In this document: positions 19,623 to 57,250 of the stretch, in pieces | Layout: each line of letters starts with the position of its first letter | Numbering within the stretch: the stretch's first letter is position 1 | Source of the DNA: an uncultured Azospirillum sp. | GTDB lineage: Bacteria; Pseudomonadota; Alphaproteobacteria; Rickettsiales; UBA3002 | Length of the DNA: 64,000 nucleotides | Direction of reading: 5' to 3' | NCBI GenBank assembly: GCA_964530085.1 | Contig: CAZGXX010000003.1 | Coordinates: forward strand, 210,864 to 274,863 | Position numbers and translations under genes: made by a program | Notes under the pieces: generated by a model | The model's input: only the letters and a program-made list of their open reading frames with translations | Databases searched by the model: none | What the model was told of the DNA's origin: nothing

Positions 19623-19653
19623 ATCATACCCCCCCCGGTTAATTTTTCGTTAA
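19623..19653 (-). promoter_or_regulatory. module-B (CtrA-box-like) promoter: TTAACgaaaaaTTAAC, 9 nt, TATGAT
   Basis: On the minus strand the half-sites are at 19653-19649 and 19642-19638 (11-bp period, i.e. TTAA-N7-TTAAC). The -10 TATGAT is at 19628-19623. Confidence 0.65.
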
Positions 19654-19718
19654 TATTTTACGATTTTTACGATTTTTTTGAAAAAAGCGTGGATTTACGC
19701 GTTGCCCTCTCCACATAC

Positions 19719-19829
19719 TCCGTCATTGCGAGCGCTAGCGAAGCAATCCAGCGTCGCGCGTCGGCGCGACAGTATTTCTCTTTAAGGAGTCTGGATTGCC
19801 GCGTCGCTACGCTCCTCGCAATGACGGAG
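19719..19829. repeat. nested palindromic intergenic element (CGTCAT...ATGACG family)
   Basis: CTCCGTCATTGCGAG (19719-19733) pairs with CTCGCAATGACGGAG (19815-19829). There are inner palindromes (GCAATCCAG...CTGGATTGC). It is responsible for two spurious small ORFs. Confidence 0.8.
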
Positions 19830-19882
19830 CGTGTAGCCAATCCCTCACGGATCATCCCGCATCCTCGCATCGGCGCGTCGCC

Positions 19883-20779
19883 CTAATGCTCCAGCTCCGC
19901 GAGCTTGGGTCGGCGGAAGGTGATGATCGCCACGCCGGTCAGCGTCAGTGCGCCGCCGAGGAAGAGTTGCGGGGTGAGTGCCTCGCCAAAAATCAGCGCG
20001 CCGAAGCTGATGCCGAAGATCGGCATGAGCAGGCCAAACGGCAGCACCCGCGTCACGGGGAAACTGCGCATCAGCCAGTTCCACAGGCCGTACCCCACCA
20101 GCGTTGAAAGCAAAATGCTATACAGCACCCCGAGCCAGCTCGCCGTCAGCGCGTGGGTGATGCGTTGCCAGTGATTATCCTCGAACAGCAGGCTGATGAG
20201 CAGAAATTGCGGCACCGAAAATAGCGCAGGCCAGAACAGCATGCTCACCCAATGCGGGTGCTCGAAGGTTTTGAGGTAGAGGTTCGCCGTGCTCCACGCC
20301 GCGCAGGCGAGCAGCGCCAGCAGGAACGCCAGCCAATGTTCCGAGGCATTGGGTGTGCCCGCCACAATCACCACCCCCATGAAGGCGACCACGAGGCCGA
20401 CCGAGCGCCACGGGCCCAGATAATCCTTGAAGAAAATCGCCGCCATCGCGCAGGAAAACGGCACGCCGAGCTGTGTCGCAATCACCGCCGAGGCGATGGA
20501 GAGGCCCATATGCAGCGCGGTCATCATCAGCCCGAACTGCACGGTAATCTGCATCACCGAGAGGAAAATCATCGGCCGCATGCGTGGCCGTGGCTGGCGC
20601 AGCGCGAAGGGGGCCAGCAGCAGCGCCACGCCAATAAAACGTAGCAGCGACATCAGAAACGGCGGGAAATCCATCAGCGCAAACCGCGTTGCCGAATAAT
20701 TGCCACCCCAGACAATGGCTACCGCGACCGCGGCGAGAATCGCGTGAACGGGCATGGGGAGTGCGGCATGTTTGGTCAT
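19883..20779 (-). CDS. DMT-superfamily (EamA-like) transporter
   Basis: 298 aa with about 10 hydrophobic helices in two EamA-like halves. Confidence 0.8.
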   Translation of the reverse strand: MTKHAALPMPVHAILAAVAVAIVWGGNYSATRFALMDFPPFLMSLLRFIGVALLLAPFALRQPRPRMRPMIFLSVMQITVQFGLMMTALHMGLSIASAVIATQLGVPFSCAMAAIFFKDYLGPWRSVGLVVAFMGVVIVAGTPNASEHWLAFLLALLACAAWSTANLYLKTFEHPHWVSMLFWPALFSVPQFLLISLLFEDNHWQRITHALTASWLGVLYSILLSTLVGYGLWNWLMRSFPVTRVLPFGLLMPIFGISFGALIFGEALTPQLFLGGALTLTGVAIITFRRPKLAELEH

Positions 20780-21014
20780 CCCGCTGTTGCTAACGCAAAG
20801 CGGGGTAACAGAGCCAGTGATTTCTCAAGCGACTCATCCAACACCGCATCTATTCCGCCTAACCTGCTGTTATTCATGCTTGCGCGCCACAGGGCTCGCG
20901 CATTGAGTGAGCTTCGCCCCCTAAGCTACGAAACTTTTCTGGATTTTAACGGCGTTTTATGCGATAGTGCTCGTCCGTTAGCGACAGCCCTATTGGTATC
21001 CTCAGGATATCGGA

Positions 21015-21052
21015 ACAAAAAAAGAGGGCTTTGAGATTACTCTCAAAGCCCC
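21015..21052 (-). terminator. rho-independent terminator of the djlA-like gene
   Basis: Minus strand reads GGGCTTTGAG-agtaat-CTCAAAGCCC followed by TCTTTTTTTG. Confidence 0.85.
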
Positions 21053-21115
21053 AAGTCGCTCGGCAAGCAACTGAACTCCGGCTTTCGCCGGGATTAGGTA
21101 CCAAAGGCGTCCCCT

Positions 21116-21868
21116 CTAAAGGGTGGCGCCTTTCGTGTTTATACGCCCCCACCAACCGGCAGTGCCCGTGGTGGTGCGTGGTGATTTCTTCGCACGCAAT
21201 TGCTGCGCGGCGCGGTAAGCAGCGTTCACTGCCGCGAGTTGGTCAGACAGCACGGCAATGGTTTCAGCGCTCGCACCCGCGGCGTGGTAACGGTCAGGGT
21301 GCAGCATTTGCACCCGCGCCATATAATGGTCGCGCAGTTCCTGATCACTCACTCGCGACGACACGCCGAGCACATCGTAAGGCGAGGCACCGGCAGGCAC
21401 GAGGGTTTTCGCAATCATCTCGCGGAAGCGTTCGCGGGCGATGCCGAAAATATCGGCCACCGCACGCAGGAGCTCGAGCTCCGCCGCGTTCAGCGCCGCA
21501 TCCGCCGTGGCGATATGCAACAGACGTTGGAACAGTTCGCGGTGCAGCGCAGGTTGCCCTGCCGTCATGCTCGCGATTTGCCGCGCATATTGGAGTGCGG
21601 TGCTGTTATCCGTCACGCGCTTCACAAACAGGCTGCGCACTTGCGCTGCATCGGCCTGATCGCTCTCCACAAAGAGTGTATGAAACGCTGCGAACTCTGC
21701 TTTATTTGGCGTGCCATCAACGCTCGCCAGCTTGGCAGCGAGGGCAACCAGCGCATGGGTAAACGACATCGATTCCATCCGTGCCTGCGCCGCCACATCT
21801 GCCACGCCGACGAACGCCGAAACCGGCATCGACACAAACGGGCTAAAGAAACGCAGGACGCTGGACAT
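21116..21868 (-). CDS. DjlA-like co-chaperone (TerB-like domain + C-terminal J domain)
   Basis: The C-terminal J domain reads SPYDVLGVSSRVSDQELRDHYMARVQMLHPD (HPD motif). The N-terminal tellurite-resistance-like domain reads LAAKLASVDGTPNKAEFAAF. Confidence 0.8.
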   Translation of the reverse strand: MSSVLRFFSPFVSMPVSAFVGVADVAAQARMESMSFTHALVALAAKLASVDGTPNKAEFAAFHTLFVESDQADAAQVRSLFVKRVTDNSTALQYARQIASMTAGQPALHRELFQRLLHIATADAALNAAELELLRAVADIFGIARERFREMIAKTLVPAGASPYDVLGVSSRVSDQELRDHYMARVQMLHPDRYHAAGASAETIAVLSDQLAAVNAAYRAAQQLRAKKSPRTTTGTAGWWGRINTKGATL

Positions 21869-22173
21869 GGAGCAAAAAACTTCTGGTCGAGAGGTGAATC
21901 GTTACACCCACTATATATAGATGCCACACCGGCTTGACAACAACATTTTGTGGTAAATCGGTATTTTAGTGTCAATCCGCACTCGTGCTTTGCGGCGCGA
22001 TTTTGTCCACAATCGTTACCCACAGACCCATGCAAAAAATGTCGCTTCCGCAATCAAATTTTTGTGCAGAATTTTTCAAACGTACACATCATCGCACTTG
22101 TCTCTAGACCTTTCGCGTGAAGCGCTTTATGAGTGAGTCACCAATCACAACCGACCTTAAGGTAACGCGCGCC

Positions 22174-23025
22174 ATGAGCACCAAAAACCCACCAAGAACA
22201 CCCATCTACGAAGGCAAAGCAAAAAAACTGTTCGAGGGGCCAGAACCCGGTACCTTGATCCAGCATTTCAAGGATGATGCAACGGCGTTTAACGCCAAGA
22301 AAAAAGGCACGATTGCGGGCAAGGGCATCATCAACAATAAAATTTCGGAATTCCTGATGTCGCGCCTCGGCGATATGGGCATCCCCACCCATTTTATCCG
22401 CAGCATCAACATGCGCGAACAACTCGTGCGCGCGGTCGATATCGTGCCAATCGAAGTCATCGTTCGCAACTATGCCGCTGGCTCGTTTGCGGAGCGTTTC
22501 GGCGCGTTTGAAGGCGAGGCCCTCGGCGCTCCGCTGATGGAATTCTGCCTGAAGGACGACCGCCTCGGCGACCCGTTCATCGCGGAAGACCACATCTACG
22601 CGTTCGGCATCGCGCAGCCGGAAGAGATCGACGAAATTCGCCACTACGCGCTGCGCATTAACGACATTCTCGCCGGGCTGTTTTATGGCCACGGCATCCG
22701 CCTGATCGACCTCAAGCTCGAGTTCGGCCGCTTCTACGAAGGTGATCAGGAAATCATCGTGCTGGCGGATGAGATCTCGCCCGATACCTGCCGTTTGTGG
22801 GATGTCACCACCAACGACAAAATGGACAAAGACCGTTTCCGCCGCGACCTTGGCAAGACCGAGGAAGCCTACCGTGAAGTGGCGCGCCGCCTCGGTGTGC
22901 TGCCGAACATGAGCGTAGTAGAACCGGTAAAATTCAGCAATGCGGGCAAAGCGCCGAAAGCGAAAGCCAAGGCTGCTGCGAAGCCTGCCGCCAAAGCAAA
23001 ACCTGCGCCGAAAAAGAAGAAATAG
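22174..23025 (+). CDS. purC: phosphoribosylaminoimidazole-succinocarboxamide synthase with Lys/Ala/Pro-rich tail
   Basis: [12 protein letters not shown]...[12 protein letters not shown] and [14 protein letters not shown]. Start taken at ATG 22174. The C-terminus is [27 protein letters not shown]. Confidence 0.9.
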
Positions 23026-23026
23026 C

Positions 23027-23269
23027 ATGAAAGCGAAAGTACACATTACCTTGAAAAATGGCGTGCTGGATCCGCAAGGCGCGGCGATTGAATCGGCCCT
23101 CACCCATCTCGGCTTTGGCGACGTGGCGAATGCGCGCGTCGGCAAATATATCGAGCTGGAGCTGAAGCAGACCAACACGGCGGATGCGAAGCTTGCCGTC
23201 ACGCAGATGTGTGAAAAGCTGCTCGCCAACACAGTCGTCGAGAAATACGTGATCGAGCTGGTGGAGTAG
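23027..23269 (+). CDS. purS: phosphoribosylformylglycinamidine synthase subunit PurS
   Basis: MKAKVHITLKNGVLDPQGAAIESAL. The ATG is 1 nt after the purC stop. Confidence 0.9.
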   Translation: MKAKVHITLKNGVLDPQGAAIESALTHLGFGDVANARVGKYIELELKQTNTADAKLAVTQMCEKLLANTVVEKYVIELVE

Positions 23270-23272
23270 ACG

Positions 23273-23962
23273 ATGCAATCTGCCGTCATCGTTTTCCCCG
23301 GTTCCAATTGCGACCGCGACGTGTTCACCATCATGGAAGCACAAGCGCTGAACCCGCGCATGGTTTGGCATGATGATGCGTCGTTGCCCGAAGGGCTCGA
23401 CCTCGTGGTGCTACCCGGCGGGTTTTCGTATGGTGATTATTTACGCTGCGGCGCGATGGCGGCACGCTCGCCCATCATGCAGGATGTGATTCGCTTTGCT
23501 GAGCGTGGCGGCCATGTGCTCGGCATCTGCAACGGCTTTCAAATCCTCTGCGAATCCGGCCTGCTGCCCGGCACGCTGATGCGCAACAACCACCTCAAAT
23601 TCCACTGCAAGGAAACCATGCTGCGTGTGGAGGCGAATGATTCCGCCTTCACCAGTAAATACACGCGGGGCGAAGTCATCAACCTGCCCGTCGCCCATGC
23701 GGAGGGGAATTATTTCGCGGACGCCGAAACCCTCAAAGCGCTGAACGACAACCAGCAGGTCGCGTTTCGCTATGCGGATGCAAACGGTGCGGTGAATGCC
23801 GCCGCGAACCCGAACGGCACCTGCGAGAACATCGCAGGCATCACCAACACGGGCAAAAACGTGCTGGGCTTAATGCCGCACCCCGAGCGCCACAGCGACG
23901 CTGCGCTCGGCGGTGTGGCTGGCGCACGCATGTTCCAGTCCCTCCTCGCGCGCTTTGCGTAG
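23273..23962 (+). CDS. purQ: phosphoribosylformylglycinamidine synthase glutaminase subunit PurQ
   Basis: GFSYGDYLRCGA, the nucleophile motif GICNGFQIL, and MPHPER. Confidence 0.92.
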   Translation: MQSAVIVFPGSNCDRDVFTIMEAQALNPRMVWHDDASLPEGLDLVVLPGGFSYGDYLRCGAMAARSPIMQDVIRFAERGGHVLGICNGFQILCESGLLPGTLMRNNHLKFHCKETMLRVEANDSAFTSKYTRGEVINLPVAHAEGNYFADAETLKALNDNQQVAFRYADANGAVNAAANPNGTCENIAGITNTGKNVLGLMPHPERHSDAALGGVAGARMFQSLLARFA

Positions 23963-24075
23963 CCGATTCGCACGGCATTTTATCTAATTTCATCACCAAA
24001 AAATACACCTGAAATGGGCGGATTTCTGTCTTTTTTCGTGTTGCATGCATTTTTCCACTAAAATTGTTTGCACCG

Positions 24076-24107
24076 TTAACCATCCGTTAACTTCTCTTTG
24101 CTATATT
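24076..24107 (+). promoter_or_regulatory. module-B (CtrA-box) promoter: TTAACCATccgTTAAC, 10 nt, TATATT
   Basis: Half-sites at 24076-24080 and 24087-24091 give exactly TTAA-N7-TTAAC and include the TTAACCAT 8-mer. The -10 TATATT is at 24102-24107, preceded by TGC. Confidence 0.7.
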
Positions 24108-24155
24108 CACCCTATGAGCGGCGAATAACAGCCAAGCACAGGGTAGGTGGTTAGA

Positions 24156-24431
24156 ATGTCAGTAACTGGTGTAAGCGTGAATCCATATCATACGGTGTTT
24201 CAGGGTAATGCCCTGAAACAAGCGCGGGACTTGGCTCTGCCGAACCAGTTCATTGACCATTTTGTGCAGCAGCACAGCGAGCTAACCAGTCCCTACCCGC
24301 TCGTAGGCGATGCGGTGGCGAAGTCGCGAATCAGCGGCGCGGTGAATGTTGATAATGGCAGCCTCTTCGCTGCCCAGTCCTTCGAAGGGACACCGAATTC
24401 AGGTAAGAGCGGTAACTACCGCACTACCTAA
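24156..24431 (+). CDS. orphan hypothetical protein (91 aa)
   Basis: ATG 24156 with RBS AGGTGG 6 nt upstream. The listed start at 24147 is a GTG. Followed by a terminator. No family recognised. Confidence 0.6.
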   Translation: MSVTGVSVNPYHTVFQGNALKQARDLALPNQFIDHFVQQHSELTSPYPLVGDAVAKSRISGAVNVDNGSLFAAQSFEGTPNSGKSGNYRTT

Positions 24432-24457
24432 CCAAGTTTTACGTGGTTTGCCAACTG

Positions 24458-24490
24458 GGCCGGGTCCTTAAAAAGATCCGGCCTTTTTTT
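24458..24490 (+). terminator. rho-independent terminator
   Basis: GGCCGGGTC-cttaaaaa-GATCCGGCC followed by TTTTTTTG. Confidence 0.75.
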
Positions 24491-24609
24491 GTTTGCGTAA
24501 CGCGCGCCTTCGTAAATTCGTGTCGCGCGTAGCCTTCCATGGCGAGCCCAAAGGGAGGGTGTTTAAGGGTGATAGCCTCATCAGGCGCAAAGCGCGAATA
24601 AAAGCACGC

Positions 24610-24840
24610 TCACTTCGCGTGCGTCACCACCGCCAGCGCGTGGAGCGTGGTGCCGAGATCAGCGCCAAACGCTGCGTTCACCATGCGGTGCTGCGCCACA
24701 CGGTTGAGGCCGGAGAACGCCGCACTCGTCACCGTGATTTTCCAGTGGTCGTTATCGCCCGCCAGATCCTCCAGCAGAATTTCAGCATCCGGGATGGCGG
24801 TTTTCACGCGGCGGGTGATTTCCTCGGCAGTCATGGGCAT
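24610..24840 (-). CDS. bolA: BolA-family protein
   Basis: 76-aa product MPMTAEEITRRVKTAIPDAEILLEDLAGDNDHWKITVTSAAFSGLNRVAQHRMVN. The size and the H-containing motif are typical of BolA. Confidence 0.8.
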   Translation of the reverse strand: MPMTAEEITRRVKTAIPDAEILLEDLAGDNDHWKITVTSAAFSGLNRVAQHRMVNAAFGADLGTTLHALAVVTHAK

Positions 24841-24940
24841 AGCAACACTCCTCATCGTTATCAGCGAATGACCAAGGGTGTAGCACCCATTTCGCTCCCC
24901 TCAAAGCACAATAACCATCTGATTTATATGCACTGAAAAT

Positions 24941-24984
24941 GTCATAAAACTGTCACACACAGCTGCAGCGAAATTGGGTATTCT
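24941..24984 (+). promoter_or_regulatory. module-A promoter: aTGTCATAAAACTGTCAC, 22 nt, TATTCT; predicted leaderless transcript
   Basis: The 18-mer at 24939-24956 matches the Pho-box consensus at 17 of 18 positions. The -10 TATTCT is at 24979-24984. The ATG at 24991 is 7 nt downstream and has no RBS. Confidence 0.65.
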
Positions 24985-24990
24985 GGGATC

Positions 24991-25506
24991 ATGGAATTAA
25001 CCCCACAGGAAAAATCACGCGTCTGGTGGAGCGGCACGATCAAAGGTGCTGTGAAGGGCGCATTGATGGGACTAGCAATTGGCGTGGCCAGCGCATTGCT
25101 TCTCCAGTTCGCCTTGATCCCTCTCTTGCCCTCACTCGGCCCCGTCTTCGGCGCGTTCCTCACGATGACTCCTTCCGCGGCGGCCACATGGGTAGGCGGT
25201 ATCGCTCCTCTTTCGGCCTTCTCCACCATTCCGCTCGCCGTATTCAGCGGCCTGAGTGGCCTGTTCAGCGGTGTGTTTTCTTCCGGAGAGCAAGCCGTTA
25301 CCGCCTATAAAGAGCAAAAAGAACATGCGCTGCAGGACATGAAGCTCGCGCAGATCGAAGGTCGCGGTCAGGCGGTTTCCTACGCGACGGCACCCGCACA
25401 TAATCTGCAATCCGGCTTATCGAGCACACCCGGCACCCGCATCTCCGCTGCCGAGGCTGAGATCAGCCGCCTGCAAAACGCGCCGACCAGCCTTTCACTG
25501 CACTAG
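24991..25506 (+). CDS. orphan small-residue-rich multi-pass membrane protein
   Basis: GTIKGAVKGALMGLAIGVASALL followed by further Gly/Ala/Ser-rich hydrophobic segments and a polar C-terminal tail. Same architecture as the 33726-35497 proteins. Confidence 0.7.
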   Translation: MELTPQEKSRVWWSGTIKGAVKGALMGLAIGVASALLLQFALIPLLPSLGPVFGAFLTMTPSAAATWVGGIAPLSAFSTIPLAVFSGLSGLFSGVFSSGEQAVTAYKEQKEHALQDMKLAQIEGRGQAVSYATAPAHNLQSGLSSTPGTRISAAEAEISRLQNAPTSLSLH

Positions 25507-25509
25507 TCG

Positions 25510-26796
25510 TTATTGATACATAATCGCTGGGTGCTGCGCGAGGCGTACCTGAATCGCGTTCCAATTTAAGTTTGGCAGCAGTTCCTGATGCCTCAGGAAT
25601 ACGCGCTGATGCAGGTGCAGCTCGGCATAAAGCGCGGCGAGCTGCGCCCTCACCTCCCCGGCTGCTGCGCCGGATTGGCCGCTGACCAACGCGACGATTT
25701 CCGCCACACTGCGCTTACCATCCATCGCCGCGAGTAGCGCCTGGCTGTGCGCGTGGGTGGTGATGTTGCACGAAGCTGCGGCTTCTGCTGCCGAGTCATA
25801 GGACGGCGCAATAACAATCACCATCTCCTCTGCAAACTGCGCAGGCTGCTTATCCTGAATCGAGGCGTAGAATTGATGCGTGCGCATGCCGCCATGCATC
25901 GCATCGGCAATGACATGCTGCTCATATTCCGCACGCCCGGCCACCAGATCACGCAGCAGCGGGGCCTTCACATGCGTTTCCACCTGATAATTGGTACGCC
26001 CGCTTCCCATGAAACTGACGAGTGCCAGACCGCACTGGTCAAGCGCCTGATAGATATCCGCCGCCGTGAACGTATGGGCAAAGGGTTGTAGCAGTAACGC
26101 TTCGATCCCACTGCCATCCAGCGCGTTCAGCTCTGCTATAAAATCCGCACAGTTATGCCCCAGCCAATGGTCTGGCGGAACGGCACGTAAAAACTCGCGC
26201 ACGATTTCGATCTTCAGGTCACGCGGCATATAATCGGTGATGAGATGCTGCATTAAAGATTGCAGCATCTGCAAGGGCAAGCGGCCATAGGTCGCGTTGA
26301 GGGAGAGCAGCATCACCCCATCATCCGCGAGCACTGCGCCAAGTGCTGCTAGGCCCTCCAAGGGGTCTTCCAGATGATCGAGCACATGACTGCATTCGAT
26401 AATGTCGAACTCACCCAGTTCTGCACCTGGCAAGTCGAGCAACGACATCTGCCGATGCTCCACGTTCGTCAGGCCACGCTTGGCGAGACGGGATCTCGCC
26501 AGCACAATCGCCGTTTCCGAAGTTTCAATCGCGGTGATTTTTACCGTCGTACCGCGTGCTTGTTCGGCGAGCAGCACCGTCGCATCACCATTCCCGGCAC
26601 CAACGACGAGAATCCGTGCGCCACCGCGCAGATCGCGTTTTCCGCCCCAGCCGAAATGGTTCAGCGCATCGAATGACAGTGCGTCGTTTGGAAAAAGCTT
26701 ACTACGCTCATCCGACAAATTGCGGCTCGGATAAATGGGAGCAGGCACGGCTTCGGGTGCGTCGAGAGTGCTCATACGAAGGTTGGTCGAGATCAT
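25510..26796 (-). CDS. class I SAM-dependent methyltransferase with long C-terminal extension (paralog 1)
   Basis: Motif I ILVVGAGNGDATVLLAE, then FDIIECSHVLDHLEDP. The roughly 250-aa C-terminal domain aligns with the neighbouring paralog. Confidence 0.8.
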   Translation of the reverse strand: MISTNLRMSTLDAPEAVPAPIYPSRNLSDERSKLFPNDALSFDALNHFGWGGKRDLRGGARILVVGAGNGDATVLLAEQARGTTVKITAIETSETAIVLARSRLAKRGLTNVEHRQMSLLDLPGAELGEFDIIECSHVLDHLEDPLEGLAALGAVLADDGVMLLSLNATYGRLPLQMLQSLMQHLITDYMPRDLKIEIVREFLRAVPPDHWLGHNCADFIAELNALDGSGIEALLLQPFAHTFTAADIYQALDQCGLALVSFMGSGRTNYQVETHVKAPLLRDLVAGRAEYEQHVIADAMHGGMRTHQFYASIQDKQPAQFAEEMVIVIAPSYDSAAEAAASCNITTHAHSQALLAAMDGKRSVAEIVALVSGQSGAAAGEVRAQLAALYAELHLHQRVFLRHQELLPNLNWNAIQVRLAQHPAIMYQ

Positions 26797-26806
26797 GCTA
26801 TTCCCC

Positions 26807-28183
26807 TTATGCTGCCGTTTGAATGGGCGGAACCGATTTCAACCGCTCGACAATGTCGAACCACTGGATATACGGCGGCACATCCTTATGGCGTAAAAAC
26901 ACACGGCGGCGGCTGTTGAGCTCGTGGTAGAGCTGCCGGAGATTCTCCCGCACCTCATCCACCGCCGCGCCTGTTTCCTGCGCCACCTGAGCAACGATAT
27001 CGACGATGGGGCGCTCGTTCCCAAGCCATTTCAGCAACGCAATCGTATGTGCGCGCTTGGTAATCACCAGCGAGGGTGCTTTGAGCATAGCCACCGGCTG
27101 CTCCAACTGCGCACCCATCTCAAGTGGCGCGAGCGCTGTGATGAGCGATGCGGTGAAATCGGTAAACACACGCTGGCGAAAGCCAAGCGCAATCACCATG
27201 TCATCCGCAAATTCTGCCCCAACTTTTGGCTGCTTTGTAACGTAAAAGGAATGCTTTGCAATCGAACCACTCATCAGTTCTGCAATGGCTTGGCGTTCGG
27301 GTATCGACTTCTCTGCCACCAGCGCGCGCAGCAGCGCCGAGCGCGTATAGACCTCCGGCACATAGGCCATCTCGCCTTCCCACTCGCCGCAGAAATTGCC
27401 CATATAGAGCCCCGCCCCCTCCACCCACTCATAGAGATCTGGCACGGTGTAGGCACGATCGGTAGAGTGCAGGAACAAATCATAGGCCCCGGCGCCGCTT
27501 TCTTCCTCGATGTCCAGCTTCGACCAGTCATAGGCATGGGTCATGGGATGAGTCTTCGGCAGCTCTTTTAAAAACGCGCGCGCGATGTCGATTTTTACCA
27601 TCGGATGGGTGTCTGGCGCGATGAGATACTGCATCAATGCCTGTATGCTATAGATCGCAAGGCGGCCATAGAGCGCATAGACCATGATCGACATGATGCC
27701 GTCGTCTTTCAGCACCGCACCGAGCGCTTGTAGCCCCGCACTCGGATCTTCGAGATGGTGAAGTACTCCGCCCGATTCAATAAAATCAAACTGGCCAAGC
27801 CCTGCTGTTGGCAGGTCGAGGATCGACATATGATGCAGCGTCACATTCGTCAGCCCACGCTCGGCAAGGCGATTTTTACAGATGGCGATGGAAGCGGTCG
27901 AGAGATCAATCGACACAATCTCCGCATCTGTTCCGCGCAGTTGCTCGGCGAGGAATACCGTCGTATCGCCCGTACCCTGACCCGCCACCAAAAATCTGGC
28001 TCCCTTACGCAAATCGCGCATGCCAGCCCAGCCTTCATGGTTGATGCTATCAAGTGAGGCGTTATCGGACGTATAGAGAATCTCGCGCTCTTTGGTGTAG
28101 TCGCGCATCGGGTAAGGTAGCATTTCATACTGCCCGCGCACCGATTCAACATAGACCTTAGGGGTGGAAGACTGCTCCGTCAT
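26807..28183 (-). CDS. class I SAM-dependent methyltransferase with long C-terminal extension (paralog 2)
   Basis: FLVAGQGTGDTTVFLAE and FDFIESGGVLHHLEDP. Collinear with 25510-26796 over the whole length, ending in ...RRVFLRHKDVPPYIQW versus ...QRVFLRHQELLPNLNW. Confidence 0.8.
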   Translation of the reverse strand: MTEQSSTPKVYVESVRGQYEMLPYPMRDYTKEREILYTSDNASLDSINHEGWAGMRDLRKGARFLVAGQGTGDTTVFLAEQLRGTDAEIVSIDLSTASIAICKNRLAERGLTNVTLHHMSILDLPTAGLGQFDFIESGGVLHHLEDPSAGLQALGAVLKDDGIMSIMVYALYGRLAIYSIQALMQYLIAPDTHPMVKIDIARAFLKELPKTHPMTHAYDWSKLDIEEESGAGAYDLFLHSTDRAYTVPDLYEWVEGAGLYMGNFCGEWEGEMAYVPEVYTRSALLRALVAEKSIPERQAIAELMSGSIAKHSFYVTKQPKVGAEFADDMVIALGFRQRVFTDFTASLITALAPLEMGAQLEQPVAMLKAPSLVITKRAHTIALLKWLGNERPIVDIVAQVAQETGAAVDEVRENLRQLYHELNSRRRVFLRHKDVPPYIQWFDIVERLKSVPPIQTAA

Positions 28184-28212
28184 GATGACTCCTTATGTCT
28201 ATGCTGTCGCGT

Positions 28213-45819: not shown

Positions 45820-45848
45820 AAGCGATTTGTGGCAGTTTTACAGCGAAG

Positions 45849-46775: not shown

Positions 46776-46776
46776 G

Positions 46777-47526: not shown

Positions 47527-47535
47527 GCGTAGCTC

Positions 47536-47730: not shown

Positions 47731-47909
47731 TAGGCGGCATGCCCATGCTGGGCATCATGGCCAAGCACATAGGTGCGGCTGCAATAGGGGCAGGTCACGC
47801 TGTTGCCCGCATCCGTATCGATATGCAAAAACACACGCGGATGCCCCAGCGCACCGCCGCCCCCATCGCACGCGACCTGTGGCTCCGAGACTTCAATTGT
47901 TTCAACCAT
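47730..47909 (-). CDS. zinc-finger (CHCC, NDUFS6-like) small protein
   Basis: My own translation, not in the ORF track: MVETIEVSEPQVACDGGGGALGHPRVFLHIDTDAGNSVTCPYCSRTYVLGHDAQHGHAA. The stop TAA overlaps the HIG1 ATG (TAATG). Confidence 0.7.
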   Translation of the reverse strand: MVETIEVSEPQVACDGGGGALGHPRVFLHIDTDAGNSVTCPYCSRTYVLGHDAQHGHAA

Positions 47910-47925
47910 GTGAACGCTCTAGCAG

Positions 47926-48879: not shown

Positions 48880-48975
48880 GCCCTATGCCGCAGGGCAAGA
48901 TTGCGCGCAACAAATCGCCATGACAGCATACCTCAAACGGAGTATACTGTACCAACTGTCACCACGAGGCCACCC

Positions 48976-49728: not shown

Positions 49729-49813
49729 TCTACGCCTACCCTCACTTTTTTGCAGATTTTGCTCAAAAATTATGCTAGGTTAGAACATGATCTCCACGTA
49801 GGAGGGGCATGGA

Positions 49814-50089
49814 ATGACTGAAAAACCGCGCGAGTTGGAGCTCATGCTCCGTGACTACCGGCTGACGACGGCAGAGATTATTTACCGCTTCCCGGATCAC
49901 CCGGTACTGCTGCAATCCTATGTGTGGCAAGAGCTCGACATCGCTCCCAAATTCCCCACACTGCATAAATTCCTCGATTTCTGGGATCGTGAGCTCGATG
50001 GTAAAATCCACTCCGTCAAGGTCATGCATGCCGAACTGGTTACCCCGGCGGAATTCAAACTGGTGCAGGGCTCATTGCTGATTCACTAA
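49814..50089 (+). CDS. usg: Usg-family protein
   Basis: RDYRLTTAEIIYRFPDHPVLLQSYVWQELDIAPKFPTLHKFLDFW, a small protein typical of alphaproteobacteria. Confidence 0.8.
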   Translation: MTEKPRELELMLRDYRLTTAEIIYRFPDHPVLLQSYVWQELDIAPKFPTLHKFLDFWDRELDGKIHSVKVMHAELVTPAEFKLVQGSLLIH

Positions 50090-50129
50090 ATCGCTCGACT
50101 CTGCCGCGCAGAATCGCTAGCTATCGCGC

Positions 50130-51161
50130 ATGGTAGCCTCTCTAAAAATTGCGAATATCATGCTTGGTGGCAAGCGCGGCGGCATCGAGCAGGCGCTGGT
50201 CGACAGCTCGGAAGCGCTGCGGCTGCAGGGCCACGAGGTAACGGCATTCATCCGCGACCGTGCGGCGATTGCGCCGGTATTGAAACAGGCGGGAATCCCA
50301 TTTCAGACGCTCTATCTTCCGTCGCGCTGGAATCTCTTTGCGCGGGCGGCGCTCGCCTGCGCACTCAGGCGCTACGACCTTGTACTCGTGCATGGCAACC
50401 GCGCCGGGCAGATGACACGTGGCACGGCTAAATTGCCCCCGATACTCGCGGTATCGCATAGCCGCTTCTTCACACCAATGAAGCATTTTGCAGGCATCAT
50501 TGCTCTGTCGGCAGATCGTGCGCGCGACCTTGGCACGCCTTATGTGGTGCCGAATCTCGTGCGTCTGCCTGCCTATACACCGCGCACGGAACATACGCCG
50601 CCTGTCATTGGCGCGTTAGGGCGTTTCTCGACCGAGAAGGGCATGGATATGCTGGTCGATGCGCTGCATCTGCTCCATCAGCGCGGCATCGCGTTTGAGA
50701 CGCGCATCGGTGGCGATGGGCCACAGAAAAAAATAATCACCGAGCGCATCGCCATGCGCGGGCTTGGCGATAAAATCACCCTACTCGATTGGGTGGCCGA
50801 CAAAGACGCGTTCTATCGCGGCATCGATCTATTTGTGTTACCCTCACGCAGTGAAACCTTCCCCATCACGCTACTCGAGGCGATGAGCCACGCCTGCCCC
50901 GTGGTTGCCACACGCTGCGGCGGGGCCGAGCGCATCATGAAATCCGGCCTACAGGGCTTGCTGTGCGAGATTACCGCGCACGAACTTGCCAATGCGCTGG
51001 AATGGATGGTGACGCATCCTGCACAAGCCCTCGCGATGGGAGCCGCTGGGCGCACCCATGCCGAGCAGCATTACGCCATCGACGTCGTCGGCAAAAAACT
51101 CTCGGACATCGCTGCCGAAATAGTTGCCCAAACTGCCACACCCCATGCAAAGCGTGCCTGA
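50130..51161 (+). CDS. glycosyltransferase family 4 (GT-B, GT1-like)
   Basis: LGRFSTEKGMD and the E-x7-E region SRSETFPITLLEAMSHACPVVATRCGG. Confidence 0.85.
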   Translation: MVASLKIANIMLGGKRGGIEQALVDSSEALRLQGHEVTAFIRDRAAIAPVLKQAGIPFQTLYLPSRWNLFARAALACALRRYDLVLVHGNRAGQMTRGTAKLPPILAVSHSRFFTPMKHFAGIIALSADRARDLGTPYVVPNLVRLPAYTPRTEHTPPVIGALGRFSTEKGMDMLVDALHLLHQRGIAFETRIGGDGPQKKIITERIAMRGLGDKITLLDWVADKDAFYRGIDLFVLPSRSETFPITLLEAMSHACPVVATRCGGAERIMKSGLQGLLCEITAHELANALEWMVTHPAQALAMGAAGRTHAEQHYAIDVVGKKLSDIAAEIVAQTATPHAKRA

Positions 51162-51162
51162 G

Positions 51163-51909
51163 ATGACCACACCAGCCCCTCACAGCGCCCGCGCCCTGAT
51201 TGCTATCACTGGTGACGATGCCATCCCCTTCCTGCAAGGCATCCTGACGCAGGATGTGACCAAGCTCGCTGCCGAGAAAATCCAGTTCGCGGCGCTGCTC
51301 TCACCGCAGGGAAAAATCCTCCACGACATGTTCCTGATCGATGCGGCGACCATCGGTGCGGATGACGGGATTCTCCTCGACACACCTGCACCGCACGCCC
51401 CCACCCTGCTCAAGCGGCTCGCCATGTATAAACTCCGCGCACGCGTCACCATCACGGATGTCAGCGCGGCGTGGCATATTACCCTCGGTGATGACGGCCT
51501 GCCCGACCCGCGCCATCCGCAGTTGCCCAAACGCCTCTACAGCCGCGAGCCCTACCAGTCACCACTCACCACTCACCACTCACCACTCTCTTTAGGCATT
51601 CCAGACAGCGCGGTCGATTTCGCGCCGGATACCATCGTCGCGATGGATGCGGGCTATGATTTGCTCCACGCCATCAGCTTCACCAAAGGCTGTTATGTTG
51701 GGCAGGAAATCATCGCGCGGATGTATTACAAACAAATCGCGCGCAAAGGGTTTTACATCCTCACGCACGACACACTACCCACGCGCCTCGCATTGCTACG
51801 TTTTGAAGATGTCGCGGCCGATGGCGCTGTCACGCTGGATGGCGTCACCTACCGCGCCACCCTGCCGGAATGGATGGGGCCGAAGCGGGTGGCCTCTCCT
51901 TCGATGTAG
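51163..51909 (+). CDS. ygfZ: folate-binding Fe/S-cluster repair protein YgfZ (CAF17 family)
   Basis: The diagnostic KGCYVGQE motif, plus ITGDDAIPFLQGILTQDV. The ATG is 1 nt after the glycosyltransferase stop. Contains a heptamer array encoding SPLTTHHSPL. Confidence 0.88.
   Translation: MTTPAPHSARALIAITGDDAIPFLQGILTQDVTKLAAEKIQFAALLSPQGKILHDMFLIDAATIGADDGILLDTPAPHAPTLLKRLAMYKLRARVTITDVSAAWHITLGDDGLPDPRHPQLPKRLYSREPYQSPLTTHHSPLSLGIPDSAVDFAPDTIVAMDAGYDLLHAISFTKGCYVGQEIIARMYYKQIARKGFYILTHDTLPTRLALLRFEDVAADGAVTLDGVTYRATLPEWMGPKRVASPSM
51560..51587. repeat. tandem heptanucleotide array (4 units) inside ygfZ
   Basis: CACCACT x4 exactly, preceded by CAGT. Confidence 0.9.
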
Positions 51910-51928
51910 GCAAAAATTAAAAAAAGAC

Positions 51929-52012
51929 GCGAGCCGGGCGAGCCAGCCATGAGCCCGCGAAGCGGCGCTCCATGGAATTTTCAGGAGAAAATTCCGGGAG
52001 CAATCAAAAAAC
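51929..52012 (+). repeat. copy 2 of an approximately 80-nt repeat with a covarying hairpin
   Basis: GCGAGCCGGGCGAGCCAGCCATGAGCCcGCGAAGC ... GGAATTTTC-agga-GAAAATTCC-GGGAGCA..AAAAAAC. It starts 20 nt after the ygfZ stop. Confidence 0.75.
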
Positions 52013-52204
52013 CACCTACCTCTGCGACGCAGAGGTAAGTGAATGGACCACCCTGGCCGTGGGTACGTCTGATTCTCTCGTGACCCGTTTGAACAGGTGG
52101 GCACCGTATGCCACAAACCAAGGGCTCATGACAGGGACAGCTCCCCAAGAGTGATAGTCGGTCCGGAGTAATGCACGACCTGCACAAACCGGGCAGTACC
52201 ATTC
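52006..52204 (-). ncRNA. structured small RNA with its own promoter and terminator; possible 6S RNA (ssrS)
   Basis: Minus-strand promoter TTGTGT-17 nt-TATATT (52239-52211). A long-range stem UGAAUGGuACUGCCC (52205-52191) pairs with GGGUGGUCCAUUCA (52054-52041). The terminator is ACTTACCTCTGC-gtc-GCAGAGGTAGGT followed by GGTTTTTT. No ORF. It lies downstream of zapA. Confidence 0.55.
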
Positions 52205-52268
52205 AGCGCTAATATAGAGGAAAGCTGAGGGAGACACAAGATGGATTAGGCGGAGATGGCTCTTCCGA

Positions 52269-53006
52269 TTATTCTGGAAGAAAGCTTGTATCCATCTCAT
52301 ATTGTTTTGGATTCTTGCTATTGATGAGCACACTCACCTTATTAAACCGCAAAAATTCGGTTGGATCGCGTGGGAGATCATTGCTAATAAAGCAATATTC
52401 TTTGCGTGTTTGAGGATCCGTCCACTCGGCATAAATCTCCCAGATAGGAGGGTTTTTGTCTTCATCTTTTACCACTTCTGTAACAGTCGCCTGTACTGTT
52501 TCAGGACTCCGTTTGCGCCAATAGTCTACGTCCGACATTTTTAACTTGCGCGCAAGGTTGCTAAAAAACAAGAGCACCCCTGCAAAAATCCATAGCAATC
52601 CAGGAAGGAAAAAAAGCGAAACAACACTTTTTATTTTAGCATTCTCCGGATGTTTAGGGTCATATAAAACTTCAACCTCTTCGCCCTCTTCATATCTGGG
52701 GCTACCACTACCAACGGAATCATCGAACCTGTACTCAACATCTGCCACCAAAAAAACAACCTGCGAGTAAGCACTAGCTTCCTTACCCTCGCCCTTGTAA
52801 GTAGATCCGTATATCTTTCCTTTTGTAGCCTCCGCAGTAATGATAAAGGATGCTACATTGAACGTGACCAACAAAGCCGCCAGAAAGATAATTACGCCCA
52901 GAAGGCTAAAAACCAATACATGCACACCGTTGTTGAAAAAGCTTTTTAAACCGTCACCGACGCCGAACTGGCCTCTGTAGCGTTTTATTTGTTGGTCATG
53001 CCGCAT
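52269..53006 (-). CDS. AT-rich membrane protein with two DUF3592-like modules
   Basis: Start at MRHDQQ (ATG 53006, overlapping the zapA stop). TM, then ...YSQVVFLVADVEYRFDD...GEEVEVLYDPKHPENA, then TM, then a second module ending VSVLINSKNPKQYEMD. Confidence 0.6.
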   Translation of the reverse strand: MRHDQQIKRYRGQFGVGDGLKSFFNNGVHVLVFSLLGVIIFLAALLVTFNVASFIITAEATKGKIYGSTYKGEGKEASAYSQVVFLVADVEYRFDDSVGSGSPRYEEGEEVEVLYDPKHPENAKIKSVVSLFFLPGLLWIFAGVLLFFSNLARKLKMSDVDYWRKRSPETVQATVTEVVKDEDKNPPIWEIYAEWTDPQTRKEYCFISNDLPRDPTEFLRFNKVSVLINSKNPKQYEMDTSFLPE

Positions 53007-53385
53007 TGTATGCCCTCCACACCGATAATTTCTCCGCAATACCCTCAATGCGCGTCGCGAGGGCATGGAGGCTCTCGGCCATGCCTTCTTCCAGCGCGGC
53101 GATGCGGGCGTCGTCGCCGCTTTCCATCACCTGACGGCGGGTTTCGGTCAGCTCGCGTTTCAGGTTCGCGTTTTCGCGGGTGGTTTCATGCAGTTCGTCC
53201 GCCAACATCAGCGCGGTGTAGAGCAGCAGCATCGGCTCGGAGAGTTTGCCCACGCCCTGCATCAGCGTCGCCGCGCGCGCGTTCACCTCGGTCACGAGCT
53301 GCGCGAGATGCTGCTCCTGCCCGGCGTCGCATGCCAGCGTATAATCCTTGCCCTGAATGGTCGCGATCACCGTGCGCATAGCCAT
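52996..53385 (-). CDS. zapA: cell division protein ZapA
   Basis: VIATIQGKDYTLACDAGQEQHLAQLVTEVNARA...LLYTALMLADEL. Confidence 0.85.
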   Translation of the reverse strand: MAMRTVIATIQGKDYTLACDAGQEQHLAQLVTEVNARAATLMQGVGKLSEPMLLLYTALMLADELHETTRENANLKRELTETRRQVMESGDDARIAALEEGMAESLHALATRIEGIAEKLSVWRAYNAA

Positions 53386-53386
53386 A

Positions 53387-53743
53387 TTAATGCTCCAACA
53401 TCAGGTCGAGTTGCTTCACCGTCGCATCCAGCCGTCCCACGGCATTCCCCGCTTCTTCCTGCAGGGCGAGGTAGTCGCGTTGCAGCTGTTGCAGCTGGTT
53501 GGAGAGGCGTAAATTATCCGCTTTGAGGAATTGGTTTTCGCCCTGCGCGTCTGAGAGAGCAGTTTCAATTCCCGCCGTATGCTGTTGCCATGACTGGGTA
53601 ATCTCCGCCTGTGCCGCTTCGCGCTGCAGCGCCGACTGGCCACGCTCATAGACCGCCACATCCGCCGCCGCATCGAGCCGCGCGAAGGCTTTTTCCACTG
53701 CCGAAATCGCGGCCTGAAGGACGCGTTCTGAATTGCTTGCCAT
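53387..53743 (-). CDS. coiled-coil protein preceding zapA (DUF4164/ZapB-like)
   Basis: 118 aa starting at MASNSERV (ATG 53743, RBS GAGGGAA). The upstream 345 aa of the listed 463-aa ORF are antisense to tkt and are rejected. Confidence 0.7.
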   Translation of the reverse strand: MASNSERVLQAAISAVEKAFARLDAAADVAVYERGQSALQREAAQAEITQSWQQHTAGIETALSDAQGENQFLKADNLRLSNQLQQLQRDYLALQEEAGNAVGRLDATVKQLDLMLEH

Positions 53744-53914
53744 CGTTCCCTCATCTTCCGCCGATGCATGAGGCACCGGAAACAGGGTGTTGTTTTTTAC
53801 AAAACTAATCCCATCCGCCGCGGATTGCAAATCACCCGTGGCGGGGTGTGAATAACCCGTATGCGCTTGCAGGAAGGCGCGCGCGCGTGTACAGGCTCGG
53901 ACAGCGAGGAACCC

Positions 53915-55915
53915 ATGAGCACAGCAATGAAAAAGCCAGCCCCTGAAACCGTCACCCATGACCGCATGGCCAACGCCATCCGCGCCCTCTCGATGGACGC
54001 GGTGGAGAAAGCCAAGTCCGGCCATCCCGGCATGCCGATGGGCATGGCGGATGTCGCGACCGTCCTCTTCACCGAATTCCTGCGTTACGACCCCACCCAT
54101 CCGCACTGGCCGGATCGCGACCGTTTCGTGCTCTCCGCTGGCCACGGCTCCATGCTGCAATATGCACTGCTCCACCTCACCGGCTATGCCGACATGACGC
54201 TCGAGGAGATTAAAAACTTCCGTCAGTGGGGCGCGAAAACCGCCGGTCACCCGGAATTTGGCCACGCCACCGGCATCGAAACCACTACCGGCCCGCTCGG
54301 GCAAGGCGTCGCCAACGCGGTCGGCATGGCGATGGCGGAGCGCGCGCTCCACGCCGAATTCGGCGGCGACCTCACCGACCATTACACCTATGTCATCGCG
54401 GGCGATGGCTGCTTGATGGAGGGCATCAGCCTCGAGGCCGCCTCGCTCGCCGGTCACCTCAAGCTCAACAAACTCATCGTGCTGTGGGACGACAACAACA
54501 TCTGCATCGACGGGCCGACGAGTATGACGGTCTCCGACGACCATCTCGCGCGCTTCGCCGCACAGGGCTGGAACACGGATGCAGTGGATGGGCATAACCC
54601 GGCCGAGATCCGCGCCGCGATTACGAAGGCGCAACGCTCCGATAAACCCACGCTCATTTCCTGCCGCACCACCATCGCCAAAGGCGCGCCGACGAAGGCG
54701 GGCAAAAACTCCAGCCACGGCTCGCCGCTCGGGGCAGATGAAATCGCAGGCGCGCGGAGCAATCTCGGCTGGGAACATGCGCCGTTCGAAATTCCGGACG
54801 ATGTGCTTTCAGCTTGGCGCGATGCCGCCACCACCCGCGCAAAGTCTTACACTGAGTGGGAAGCCCGCTTCGCAAAATCCGCTCACCGCGATGCTTTCGC
54901 CGCCCGCATGGAAGGCGATCTGGGCGAGGCATGGACACAGGCACTCACCGAATTAAAGTCGCAACTCGCGGCACGCGAGCCGAAGGAAGCCACGCGCGTA
55001 TCGTCGCAGAACGTGCTCGAAACGCTCGTGCCAACCCTGCCCGCATTGTTCGGCGGCTCGGCGGATTTGACCGGAAGTAATAATACGAAGACGAAGGCAA
55101 TGACGCCCTTCACCGCGAGCGACTACGCAGGCCGCTATATGTACTACGGCGTGCGCGAGCACGGCATGGCGGCGGCGATGAACGGCATCGCGCTGCATGG
55201 CGGCTTCGTGCCATATGCGGGCACCTTCCTCGTGTTCACGGATTATTGCCGCCCCTCCATCCGCCTTTCGGCGCTCATGCAGCAGCGCGTGATCTACGTG
55301 ATGACGCACGACTCCATCGGCCTTGGGGAAGACGGCCCCACGCACCAGCCAGTCGAGCATCTCGCCACGCTGCGCGCCATCCCGAACCTTCATGTTTTCC
55401 GCCCGGCGGATGCGACCGAGACCGCCGAGTGCTGGCAGCTTGCGATTGCGACGAGCGACACTCCGTCCATCCTCGCGCTCACGCGTCAGGCACTGCCGCA
55501 TCTGCGCGGCGCATTCACGCCGGATAACCTCTGCGCCTATGGTGCCTACACGTTGTGCGAATTCTCGGCAGAAAATCCTGCCGTCGTCGTCATGGCCACG
55601 GGGTCCGAAGTGCATCTCGCCGTCGAAGCCGCGAAGCAGCTCAACGCCAGCGGCACGCCCACCCGCGTCGTCTCTGTGCCCTGCATGGAGCTGTTCCTCA
55701 AGCAACCGAAAGCGTATCAGGACGACGTCCTCGCCCGCGGCACCGCCGCCAAGCGCATCGCTATTGAAGCGGGCATCGAACAAGGCTGGGAAAAACTGCT
55801 CGGCGAACACGGCATCTTCATCGGTATGAAGCATTTCGGTGCCTCCGCCCCCGCGGAAGAGCTCTACAAACGCTTCGGCATCACCACCGATGCGATTGTG
55901 GCTGCGGCGAAATAA
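53915..55915 (+). CDS. tkt: transketolase
   Basis: [39 protein letters not shown]. Start at ATG 53915 (RBS GAGGAA). Confidence 0.94.
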
Positions 55916-57190
55916 TCACAGCGCGTTTTTCTTGCCCTTGGCGGGTGGTTCATCCACCTTCCCGGTGGAGTAGAAACGCTCGTCGGTAATTTTCTGCTCG
56001 GGCGTGCGCTTCATTTCTTTTGCAATTGCGGTGATTTTTTCATCCCACCACGCGCTGAATTCTTCGCGGATTTCTTGCTGCACCTCTTTTGAAGGTACTT
56101 TATCATCTATTTTCATAACATAATTATCTAACAGAGAATAACTGATGGATCCTCTGTCCTTGGGGTGGAATCCACTCATGTATATTGCTGCCGATAGCTT
56201 TCCCCACCCCATGCCTGCAATCCCGCCTTTACGCGCCATATTGCTAATGTAATTACATCCGATTTCTTCCAGAGCCTTTAATGCTTCCGGGTTGTTCATG
56301 AAGTGATCGAAATACTCCTCAAATGTAAACGATATGTCCCCTGCGCTGTTTTTTATACGAGAATGCATCATTATTTCTTCGCGGGCATTCGCATAGTCAT
56401 AGTATAATTGACAGGTTCGAGAGGGCTGCACAACGTTTCCCCGCTGCTCCAGTACCATCAGATTGGTATGTTCCCCCTGCCATCTCCAATAGGGTGAGGT
56501 ATTAGGTATATAGCGCCCGGGCGGATCATAACAGACCAACTCCTGCCCGGCCAGTTTGTGGAGCATCGGATCGCCGACATGATTTGTCGGATTATCCTCA
56601 CCATAGGTGAGAATATGCATCACGCGGCCGCCTTTTTTAGTGATCATCCCACAGGCAACCATGCTACTCACCTGCATATGGTCGCTATGCGGATCATTGA
56701 TTACATTGCCCGTCAGAACATAATCATGTTTTGGCCCGTTCGCGGGATCCATGTTGATCCAATCCCCCTTTGAGTGACATGATTGCGGCGCGTCATCTTT
56801 TCGCGCATCGGTATAACTCACCCTATCAGTATAAAGCCCTGCTACCATATCGAACGCCTTGAACTGTTTGAGGAGTGGCCGCGCCACCGCAATGGCCTCA
56901 TCATCTGGCGCAACAAACGCACACGAGATATCCGCAAAAGGCTGAAGCTTGTAATGCTCTAGTCGTTCAACAAAAAACTCATAAAATTTTGGCTCAAGTA
57001 TAGAATGGTTTCGATGCTCTTTACCAAGATATTCATCGATATCTTGCTTCAGCGATGCGCGCACCTCTTCAGAACCAAACTTCTCGGGGTGACGCGCGTA
57101 TACGTCGTTGATCATCGCCCATAATCCCCATAGGTCAGCAGCACCATCACCCATGCTGTATGCATCATACCACTTCATTTCCATCAACAT
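55916..57190 (-). CDS. orphan hypothetical protein (424 aa) inserted between tkt and gap
   Basis: AT-rich ORF. Start set at ATG 57190, 6 nt after RBS AAGGTGGAG. A CtrA-box-type promoter lies upstream. No family recognised. Confidence 0.72.
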   Translation of the reverse strand: MLMEMKWYDAYSMGDGAADLWGLWAMINDVYARHPEKFGSEEVRASLKQDIDEYLGKEHRNHSILEPKFYEFFVERLEHYKLQPFADISCAFVAPDDEAIAVARPLLKQFKAFDMVAGLYTDRVSYTDARKDDAPQSCHSKGDWINMDPANGPKHDYVLTGNVINDPHSDHMQVSSMVACGMITKKGGRVMHILTYGEDNPTNHVGDPMLHKLAGQELVCYDPPGRYIPNTSPYWRWQGEHTNLMVLEQRGNVVQPSRTCQLYYDYANAREEIMMHSRIKNSAGDISFTFEEYFDHFMNNPEALKALEEIGCNYISNMARKGGIAGMGWGKLSAAIYMSGFHPKDRGSISYSLLDNYVMKIDDKVPSKEVQQEIREEFSAWWDEKITAIAKEMKRTPEQKITDERFYSTGKVDEPPAKGKKNAL

Positions 57191-57218
57191 GCCGGACTCC
57201 ACCTTCTTGCCAGACCTC

Positions 57219-57250
57219 AGTTTACCACCATATGTTTAATGAAAGATTAA
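57219..57250 (-). promoter_or_regulatory. module-B (CtrA-box-like) promoter: TTAATctttcaTTAAA, 10 nt, TAAACT
   Basis: On the minus strand the half-sites are at 57250-57246 and 57239-57235 (TTAA-N7-TTAA). The -10 TAAACT is at 57224-57219. Confidence 0.6.

Follow-up and report, generated by a model that had tools for sequence, protein, structure and literature searches.

Four orphan genes and the boxes in front of them

The window analysed here is a 64-kb stretch of genomic DNA (contig CAZGXX010000003.1, deposited as an uncultured Azospirillum sp.), in which four genes of no recognisable family are each preceded by a tandem TTAA element resembling the binding site of the alphaproteobacterial regulator CtrA. 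Orphan 1 (24156-24431, + strand) encodes a protein of 91 residues; it is a single-gene unit, judging from the strong terminator-like hairpin that comes directly after it (24457-24494, + strand; a 10-pair stem with 7 GC pairs, followed by the T-run TTTTTTGTTT), and a Shine-Dalgarno-like GGTAGGTGG lies upstream of it. Orphan 2 (35659-36933, + strand) encodes 424 residues with a predicted caspase-like (clan CD-like) fold, while orphan 3 (19082-19588, - strand) encodes a charged, probably helical protein of 168 residues and has a GC content at third codon positions (GC3) of 0.33. Orphan 4 (55916-57190, - strand), again of 424 residues, is located between tkt and gap and is divergent from gap. None of the four has a match in Pfam or NCBIfam, and the number of homologues ranges from none to 22 each, which bears out the original prediction that these genes are lineage-restricted. 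PADLOC returned marginal matches only (E>=0.0014), for orphans 3 and 4, and no N-terminal signal peptide was apparent by eye in orphans 1, 3 and 4, the sequences that were read. The host itself is, by its gene content, alphaproteobacterial, an assignment at class level, because genes encoding HIG_1_N and zf-CHCC proteins stand next to etfAB in L001, a syntenic relative, and at the corresponding position of the window, and because homologues were found in alphaproteobacterial metagenome-assembled genomes (MAGs) only.

The four boxes share one layout, in which the tandem element is followed at a short distance by a hexamer of the form TAnnnT. Site 1 (TTAACCATCCGTTAAC-ttctctttgc-TATATT, 24076-24107, + strand) consists of an exact TTAA-N7-TTAAC box at 24076-24091, a 10-nt spacer and a predicted extended -10 element, TGcTATATT, at 24099-24107; the box includes the 8-mer TTAACCAT. 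Site 2 (GTAACAAAATCTTAAC-cattgcctgc-TATACT, 35584-35615, + strand) likewise has a 10-nt spacer and an extended -10 element (TGcTATACT, 35607-35615), and its box at 35584-35599 carries one mismatch in the 5' half, whereas the 3' half is TTAACCAT. On the opposite strand, site 3 (TTAACGAAAAATTAAC-cgggggggg-TATGAT, 19653-19623) combines an exact TTAAC-N6-TTAAC box at 19638-19653 with the 9-nt spacer CGGGGGGGG and the hexamer TATGAT, which together occupy 19623-19637. Site 4 (TTAATCTTTCATTAAA-catatggtgg-TAAACT, 57250-57219, - strand) has an exact TTAA-N7-TTAA box at 57235-57250, a 10-nt spacer, and the hexamer TAAACT at 57219-57224 with a G two bases 5' of it. Reading the sequence placed all four boxes where they had been predicted. 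The consensus originally proposed for them, TTAAC-N6-TTAAC, holds exactly at sites 1 and 3, but site 2 has a G for the first T and site 4 reads TTAAT/TTAAA; the recognition box is better written as TTAA-N7-TTAA(C), which is exact at sites 1, 3 and 4 and has one mismatch (G for T) at site 2.

The combination of box and hexamer singles out these four positions within the window. A scan of all 64 kb on both strands, for a box with at most one mismatch followed after 9-11 nt by TAnnnT, returned exactly sites 1-4, all of them intergenic and each facing the orphan gene downstream, with 29-49 nt between the hexamer and the orphan start codon. The scan also upheld the statement that none of the recognisable housekeeping genes of the window carries the box in this geometry. 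Boxes with two mismatches in the same geometry gave six matches, all inside genes. Two intergenic boxes with one mismatch, at 9082 (between amiC and rne) and at 20946, were set aside, as neither has a -10 hexamer in register on either strand.

The box is also far more frequent than the composition of the DNA would predict. Exact TTAA-N7-TTAA occurs three times in the window against 0.29 expected from whole-window shuffles. Because intergenic DNA is AT-richer (52.7% GC, against 57.4%; the window overall has about 57%), which could inflate this result, a second null was built by shuffling only the intergenic part of the window's gene map (7,969 nt, 2000 dinucleotide shuffles); all three exact boxes are intergenic, against 0.135 expected (P=0.0005). 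When the spacing in TTAA-Nx-TTAA was varied from x=0 to x=15, enrichment was seen at x=7 only. The 8-mer TTAACCAT, which is contained in sites 1 and 2, is by itself not significantly in excess in the window (3 against 0.89 expected).

An alignment of 13 sites with 10-nt spacing, drawn from the window and its relatives, reveals further anatomy. Eleven of the 13 have a G at the second position 5' of the -10 hexamer, and in eight a T precedes that position, neither of which had been selected for by the scan; by this alignment the predicted -10 element is of the extended type, TGnTAnnnT. A scan with the sigma-70 consensus assigned a -35 hexamer to none of the four. If the predicted hexamer is set at -12 to -7, the box begins at -38 (at site 3, -37) and extends from about -38 to -23. 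Its two half-sites are 11 bp apart, so that a dimer bound there would lie on one face of the helix, in place of the -35 contact.

Conservation of the architecture in distant genomes

The strongest comparative evidence comes from orphan 2, which has 22 homologues, among them an NCBI relative (P0002) that is 84% identical; exact look-ups of P0002 and of the window protein in the contig index gave no match. The family is unannotated and previously undescribed, and was encountered here only in alphaproteobacterial MAGs and metagenomes; its three matches in the genome collection are all alphaproteobacterial MAGs. In the family alignment C96 (in GSCYGG) is invariant and H56 (in HG) nearly so. The AlphaFold2 model (mean predicted local distance difference test score, pLDDT, 82.6) suggests that the N-terminal domain is caspase-like and the C-terminal one helical. 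A Foldseek search of the PDB placed caspase-11, -4 and -1 on top, if weakly (E ~5e-3, template modelling scores 0.26/0.41), and proteases of the C11 and legumain types ranked further down. To call the gene protease-like, as was done originally, is reasonable but unproven.

Homologues of orphan 2 (41-84% identity) lie in unrelated gene neighbourhoods, yet the architecture recurs upstream of them. A box with at most one mismatch, exactly 10 nt and TAnnnT were found in eight of the ten family promoters, the window counted (the others being L001, L002, L003, L005, L006, L007 and L092; L004 and L093 deviate), while the chance of such a match in a 150-nt upstream region is 0.001-0.011. In L001 (82% amino acid identity) box and -10 hexamer are identical to those of the window. 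The remaining promoters have diverged in sequence and preserve the plan: TTAAGtatttcTTTAC-10-TAAAAT in L002 (54%), TTAATattattTTAAC-10-TATAAT in L003 (42%), TTAACgatgcaTTAAT-10-TATGCT in L006 (47%), TTCACgaaatgTTAAC-10-TAGAAT in L007 (56%) and TTCACcaaataTTAAC-10-TAAAAT in L092 (47%), as well as CTAACcaaataTTAAT-10-TATATT in L005 (48%), where the element precedes two small open reading frames placed before the homologue. L004 (41%) retains the 3' half-site only, at the same spacing (TTAAC-10-TACACT). A separate observation concerns the leader of orphan 2. From the box to the ATG, the promoter and 43-nt leader of the window (35616-35658) and of L001 (2104-2146) differ at two positions; with the leader near-identical and the proteins only 82% identical, the non-coding part is better conserved than the coding part, and this region may contain a leader element.

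Orphan 4 provides a second, smaller comparison. It has two homologues, of which the more distant is represented by two copies (L009, L010), each next to gap as in the window; the AlphaFold2 model of orphan 4 is weak (pLDDT 64.5) with faint matches to Rossmann/S-adenosylmethionine-dependent methyltransferase-like folds. Upstream of the closer homologue, L008 (45% amino acid identity), the box TTAATCTTTTATTAAA, 10 nt and TAAACT are retained where spacer and flanks have diverged (TTAATcttttaTTAAA-10-TAAACT in L008 versus TTAATctttcaTTAAA-10-TAAACT in the window).

For orphans 3 and 1 the searches were less productive. An exhaustive HMMER search yielded a single convincing homologue of orphan 3, P0031 (53% identity over the N-terminal 75 residues), the rest of the matches being coiled-coil noise, and a metagenome scan with the two-sequence alignment gave no match. 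In L011, the only locus with an orphan 3 homologue, TATGAT is found at the same place upstream, and the contig breaks off 48 nt before the start, just at the point where the box would begin. A metagenome scan anchored on purQ, upstream of orphan 1, brought up no close relative whose sequence continues downstream: the top match (79%) is cut inside purQ and the others reach at most 64%. The surroundings of orphan 1 are noteworthy in their own right. The purine operon is split (22117-30432), with purC and purQ on the + strand apart from purL on the - strand, and between them lie orphan 1, two more orphans and two paralogous methyltransferase genes (428 and 458 residues); it looks like accessory genes have been inserted into the pur cluster.

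The architecture is not confined to these families. The relatives' loci L001-L011 (104 kb) contain eight exact boxes in the same geometry, several of which precede genes without a Pfam match. Unrelated purQ loci (373 kb), used as a control, contain none, a contrast that is only indicative, as the taxa and composition of these loci are unknown. A second uncharacterised gene (431 residues in L007, 396 in L092) carries an exact box in canonical geometry at matching positions (TTAATCAAATTTTAAC-10-TATGTT / TAGATT, at L007 1914-1945 and L092 1377-1408, respectively), and L005 has more exact boxes before genes without a Pfam match. Judging from these loci, uncharacterised genes seem to be abundant in the putative regulon of this group. 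When a weight matrix trained on 11 sites, all of them from relatives, was used to score the window at about 128,000 positions, the top three were site 2 (32.3 bits), site 4 (32.1) and site 1 (23.9), against a background of -39±11. The next-best match, at 12.7 bits, is TTACTtgaaaaTTAACaaaaaTTAAT (59272-59296, + strand), a possible fifth and weaker site whose three TTAA-type half-sites have spacings of 11 and 10 nt. It is located 39-63 nt upstream of the low-GC3 orphan orf139 (59335-59754, 139 residues), and its in-register hexamer, TATTGC, is without the final T; we regard it as a candidate member of the class only. Taken together, the sequence comparisons leave us highly confident that the four sites of the window belong to one real, conserved promoter class.

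Further direct-repeat classes in the window

The original prediction held that the orphan genes of the window are split between two promoter classes of the response-regulator type. Other direct-repeat classes do precede other orphans, but there are at least three classes rather than two. One is built on a near-invariant 20-mer, TGTGAAGGTTTTGTGACAAT (TGTGA-N6-TGTGA, with an 11-bp period), of which the window has four copies on the + strand, at 34350-34369, 35540-35559, 43581-43600 and 43977-43996. These copies are situated 43-64 nt upstream of minus-strand orphans (starts at 34286, 35497, 43537 and 43913), and in three of the four a hexamer resembling TATAGT, TACTAT or TATAAC is discernible by eye about 21 nt beyond the repeat. 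Outside the window the 20-mer was found in the closest relative, L001, only (at 795, 2028 and 8465). This is probably what was originally termed the first promoter class. One of its copies stands in the same intergenic region as the CtrA-type site 2 and would form a promoter divergent from it.

Three near-perfect Pho-box-like repeats, TGTCAT(A/C)AAACTGTCA (TGTCAT-N4-CTGTCA), were found where shuffles give an expectation of 0. Two of them (13597-13612, - strand, and 13623-13638, + strand) face each other between orf422 and an M48-TPR peptidase gene, and the third (24940-24955, + strand) lies upstream of orf171 (24991-25506); the repeats suggest a third, PhoB-type promoter class. PhoB/OmpR tandem-repeat promoters have much in common with the four TTAA sites, namely a repeat with an 11-bp period in the -35 region, a good -10 element and no -35, and their activator is a winged-helix response-regulator dimer of the kind proposed here. 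The half-sites differ, however, TTAA(C) in the one case and CTGTCAT in the Pho box, and the two classes precede different genes. The only Rfam match of the window is a 6S RNA (RF00013, 49.7 bits) at 52041-52202 on the - strand.

CtrA as the likely regulator, and its rivals

We know of no other alphaproteobacterial regulator with a TTAA-N7-TTAA(C) site. CtrA recognises exactly this full site, with TTAACCAT as a half-site (PMC3692519), as had been proposed for the boxes of the window; the site is regarded as conserved throughout the alphaproteobacteria, Rickettsiales included, and CtrA is near-universal in the class (PMC2877005). The position of the boxes agrees as well, as a start at about -38, estimated from the predicted hexamer, fits the activated promoters of Caulobacter, in which the full motif has its 5' base near -35, ctrA P2 with -39 being one of them (PMC4287350). 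On balance, the four sites are probably promoters that CtrA activates as members of one regulon. A winged-helix response regulator, most probably CtrA in its phosphorylated form, would bind as a dimer to both TTAA half-sites, which are one helical turn (11 bp) apart in a box that occupies the normal position of the -35 element. RNA polymerase with the housekeeping sigma factor would recognise the extended -10 element TGnTAnnnT, and the bound regulator would substitute for the -35 contact and so make the promoter activator-dependent. The presumed products are transcripts with short leaders, encoding the 91-residue orphan, the caspase-like protein, the 168-residue charged protein and the 424-residue protein beside gap. 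Expression of the four genes might then be timed with the cell cycle; a link to host or prey interaction, as was also put forward, is speculation.

The full-site promoters of Caulobacter crescentus (ctrA P2 among others; Zhou et al. 2015, PMC4287350, with 52 transcription start sites that have the full motif) share with the four sites the motif TTAA-N7-TTAA(C) and an alphaproteobacterial host. Their 5' base near -35 to -39, their sigma-70-type -10 element and their lack of an independent -35 element agree with the layout predicted here. In Caulobacter, however, the targets are flagellar, division and methylation genes, whereas here they are lineage-restricted and uncharacterised; the distance to the predicted -10 element is here very uniform (10 nt) and this element is of an extended TGn type. 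The genomes differ in composition too, at about 57% GC here and about 67% in Caulobacter. Far from Caulobacter the same motif is known from Ruegeria KLH11, the fla2 system of Rhodobacter sphaeroides and, as predicted sites, Wolbachia. Such regulons tolerate degenerate half-sites and N6 variants, the latter also seen here in L093, and sites of both kinds are documented (PMC6180460); in those regulons, however, ctrA is known and dependence on it was tested by experiment, whereas here cis-elements alone are seen.

Several observations weigh against this assignment. Two of the four sites are without comparative support: for site 3 no usable homologous promoter was found, and orphan 1 is the sole match to itself among 5.8 billion proteins, which leaves site 1 in the same position. 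Among the promoters that could be compared, the box is degenerate upstream of the more distant orphan 4 homologue (L009), and the orphan 2 homologue in L093 (44% identity) has a TTAA-N6-TTAA variant without a clear -10 element. Neither ctrA nor cckA nor chpT was found in the window or the 93 fetched loci, a sample too small to be informative, as the window is 64 kb of a contig that the record of its proteins puts at 347 kb; a tblastn search of the same sequences with Caulobacter CtrA gave no homologue, only a weak receiver-domain match in an unrelated locus. The classical CtrA targets (flagellar genes, ccrM and ctrA) are likewise absent from the sequences examined, which leaves the box untied to a known member of the regulon. 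Finally, the spacing at site 3 is 9 nt, as against 10 nt in 13 of the 14 other compiled sites. Its spacer between box and -10 element coincides with the only G8/C8 homopolymer of the window (19629-19636, - strand), and one added G would give the canonical spacing; the tract may stem from an assembly error in the homopolymer, or it may be an element that varies in phase by strand slippage. The homologue in L011 has no G-run at the position that matches the spacer.

The best-surviving rival accepts that the class is real and has it bound by another regulator of the OmpR/PhoB family, or by an unrelated, lineage-specific dimeric factor that prefers sites like TTAA-N7-TTAA. The failure to find ctrA speaks for it, and so does the presence in the window of at least two further direct-repeat classes with an 11-bp period, which points to several tandem-site regulators of accessory genes in this lineage; in addition, the box-associated genes of the window and its relatives are all uncharacterised or non-classical as CtrA targets. 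That both TTAA-N7-TTAAC and TTAACCAT are published CtrA sites (PMC3692519) argues the other way, as does the estimated position of the box, which is that of CtrA-activated promoters (PMC4287350). Moreover, the motif is kept across deeply diverged alphaproteobacterial MAGs, in front of homologues of 41-54% identity, as is expected if the regulator is common to the class and its recognition helix is conserved. We consider a binder other than CtrA unlikely.

A second rival concerns the direction of the effect. CtrA, or a similar protein, could repress by occluding the -35 region, or the boxes could mainly serve the divergent neighbour, for instance gap. CtrA is a repressor of some promoters (PMC4287350), and in Rhodobacter it can govern divergent promoters from shared sites; at site 4 the divergent intergenic region measures 138 nt, and the box is 79 nt upstream of the start codon of gap. 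In Caulobacter, however, half-sites that overlie the -10 element are linked to repression, and full sites near -35 to activation (PMC4287350), and the four promoters have no -35 hexamer that would let them work without an activator. The fixed 10-nt distance to TGnTAnnnT is found on the orphan side and is conserved in the relatives, and there is no divergent partner at sites 1 and 3, where the genes on either side share a strand. Repression, or service to the neighbour in place of the orphan, is on this evidence very improbable as the general role of the boxes; as an additional effect, repression or, at site 4, regulation of the divergently placed gap is possible.

The notion that the sites are chance matches in AT-richer intergenic DNA, or that TTAAC is the -35 element of an alternative sigma factor, is hardly credible: the motif was picked after the sequence had been read and TTAACCAT by itself is not enriched, yet the excess withstands the intergenic-only null, eight of ten orphan 2 family promoters carry an architecture of very low chance frequency, two half-sites at an 11-bp period are conserved rather than one, and as a -35 element the 3' TTAAC would stand only 10 nt before the -10 element and the 5' half would give a 20-nt spacer, neither of which fits. 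A cluster of CtrA sites at a replication origin was also considered and rejected, as GC skew is uniformly negative over the window and the sites are 4.4-21.6 kb apart.

CtrA-dependent activation, if confirmed, would provide a testable CtrA regulon for an uncultured alphaproteobacterial lineage, in which a conserved master regulator is wired to young, lineage-specific genes. The case of the caspase-like family would be one of a CtrA-type promoter that travels with its gene across distant genomes. For the orphan genes it would offer a handle on function, that is, when they are expressed and together with what, and the succession of box, 10 nt and extended -10 element is a clean architecture for the prediction of regulons in related MAGs. 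It extends a known system to new targets and leaves our knowledge of how CtrA works unchanged. A more elaborate picture joins a CtrA regulon of mostly lineage-restricted genes, with the caspase-like family as its core and the box in front of that family wherever it occurs, in a poorly sampled uncultured group, to a slipped-strand phase switch in the G8 tract of site 3. As a whole this picture is unlikely; if true, the CtrA developmental switch would have direct, built-in control of a proteolytic or effector programme, and one CtrA target would be under stochastic on/off control through the G8 tract.

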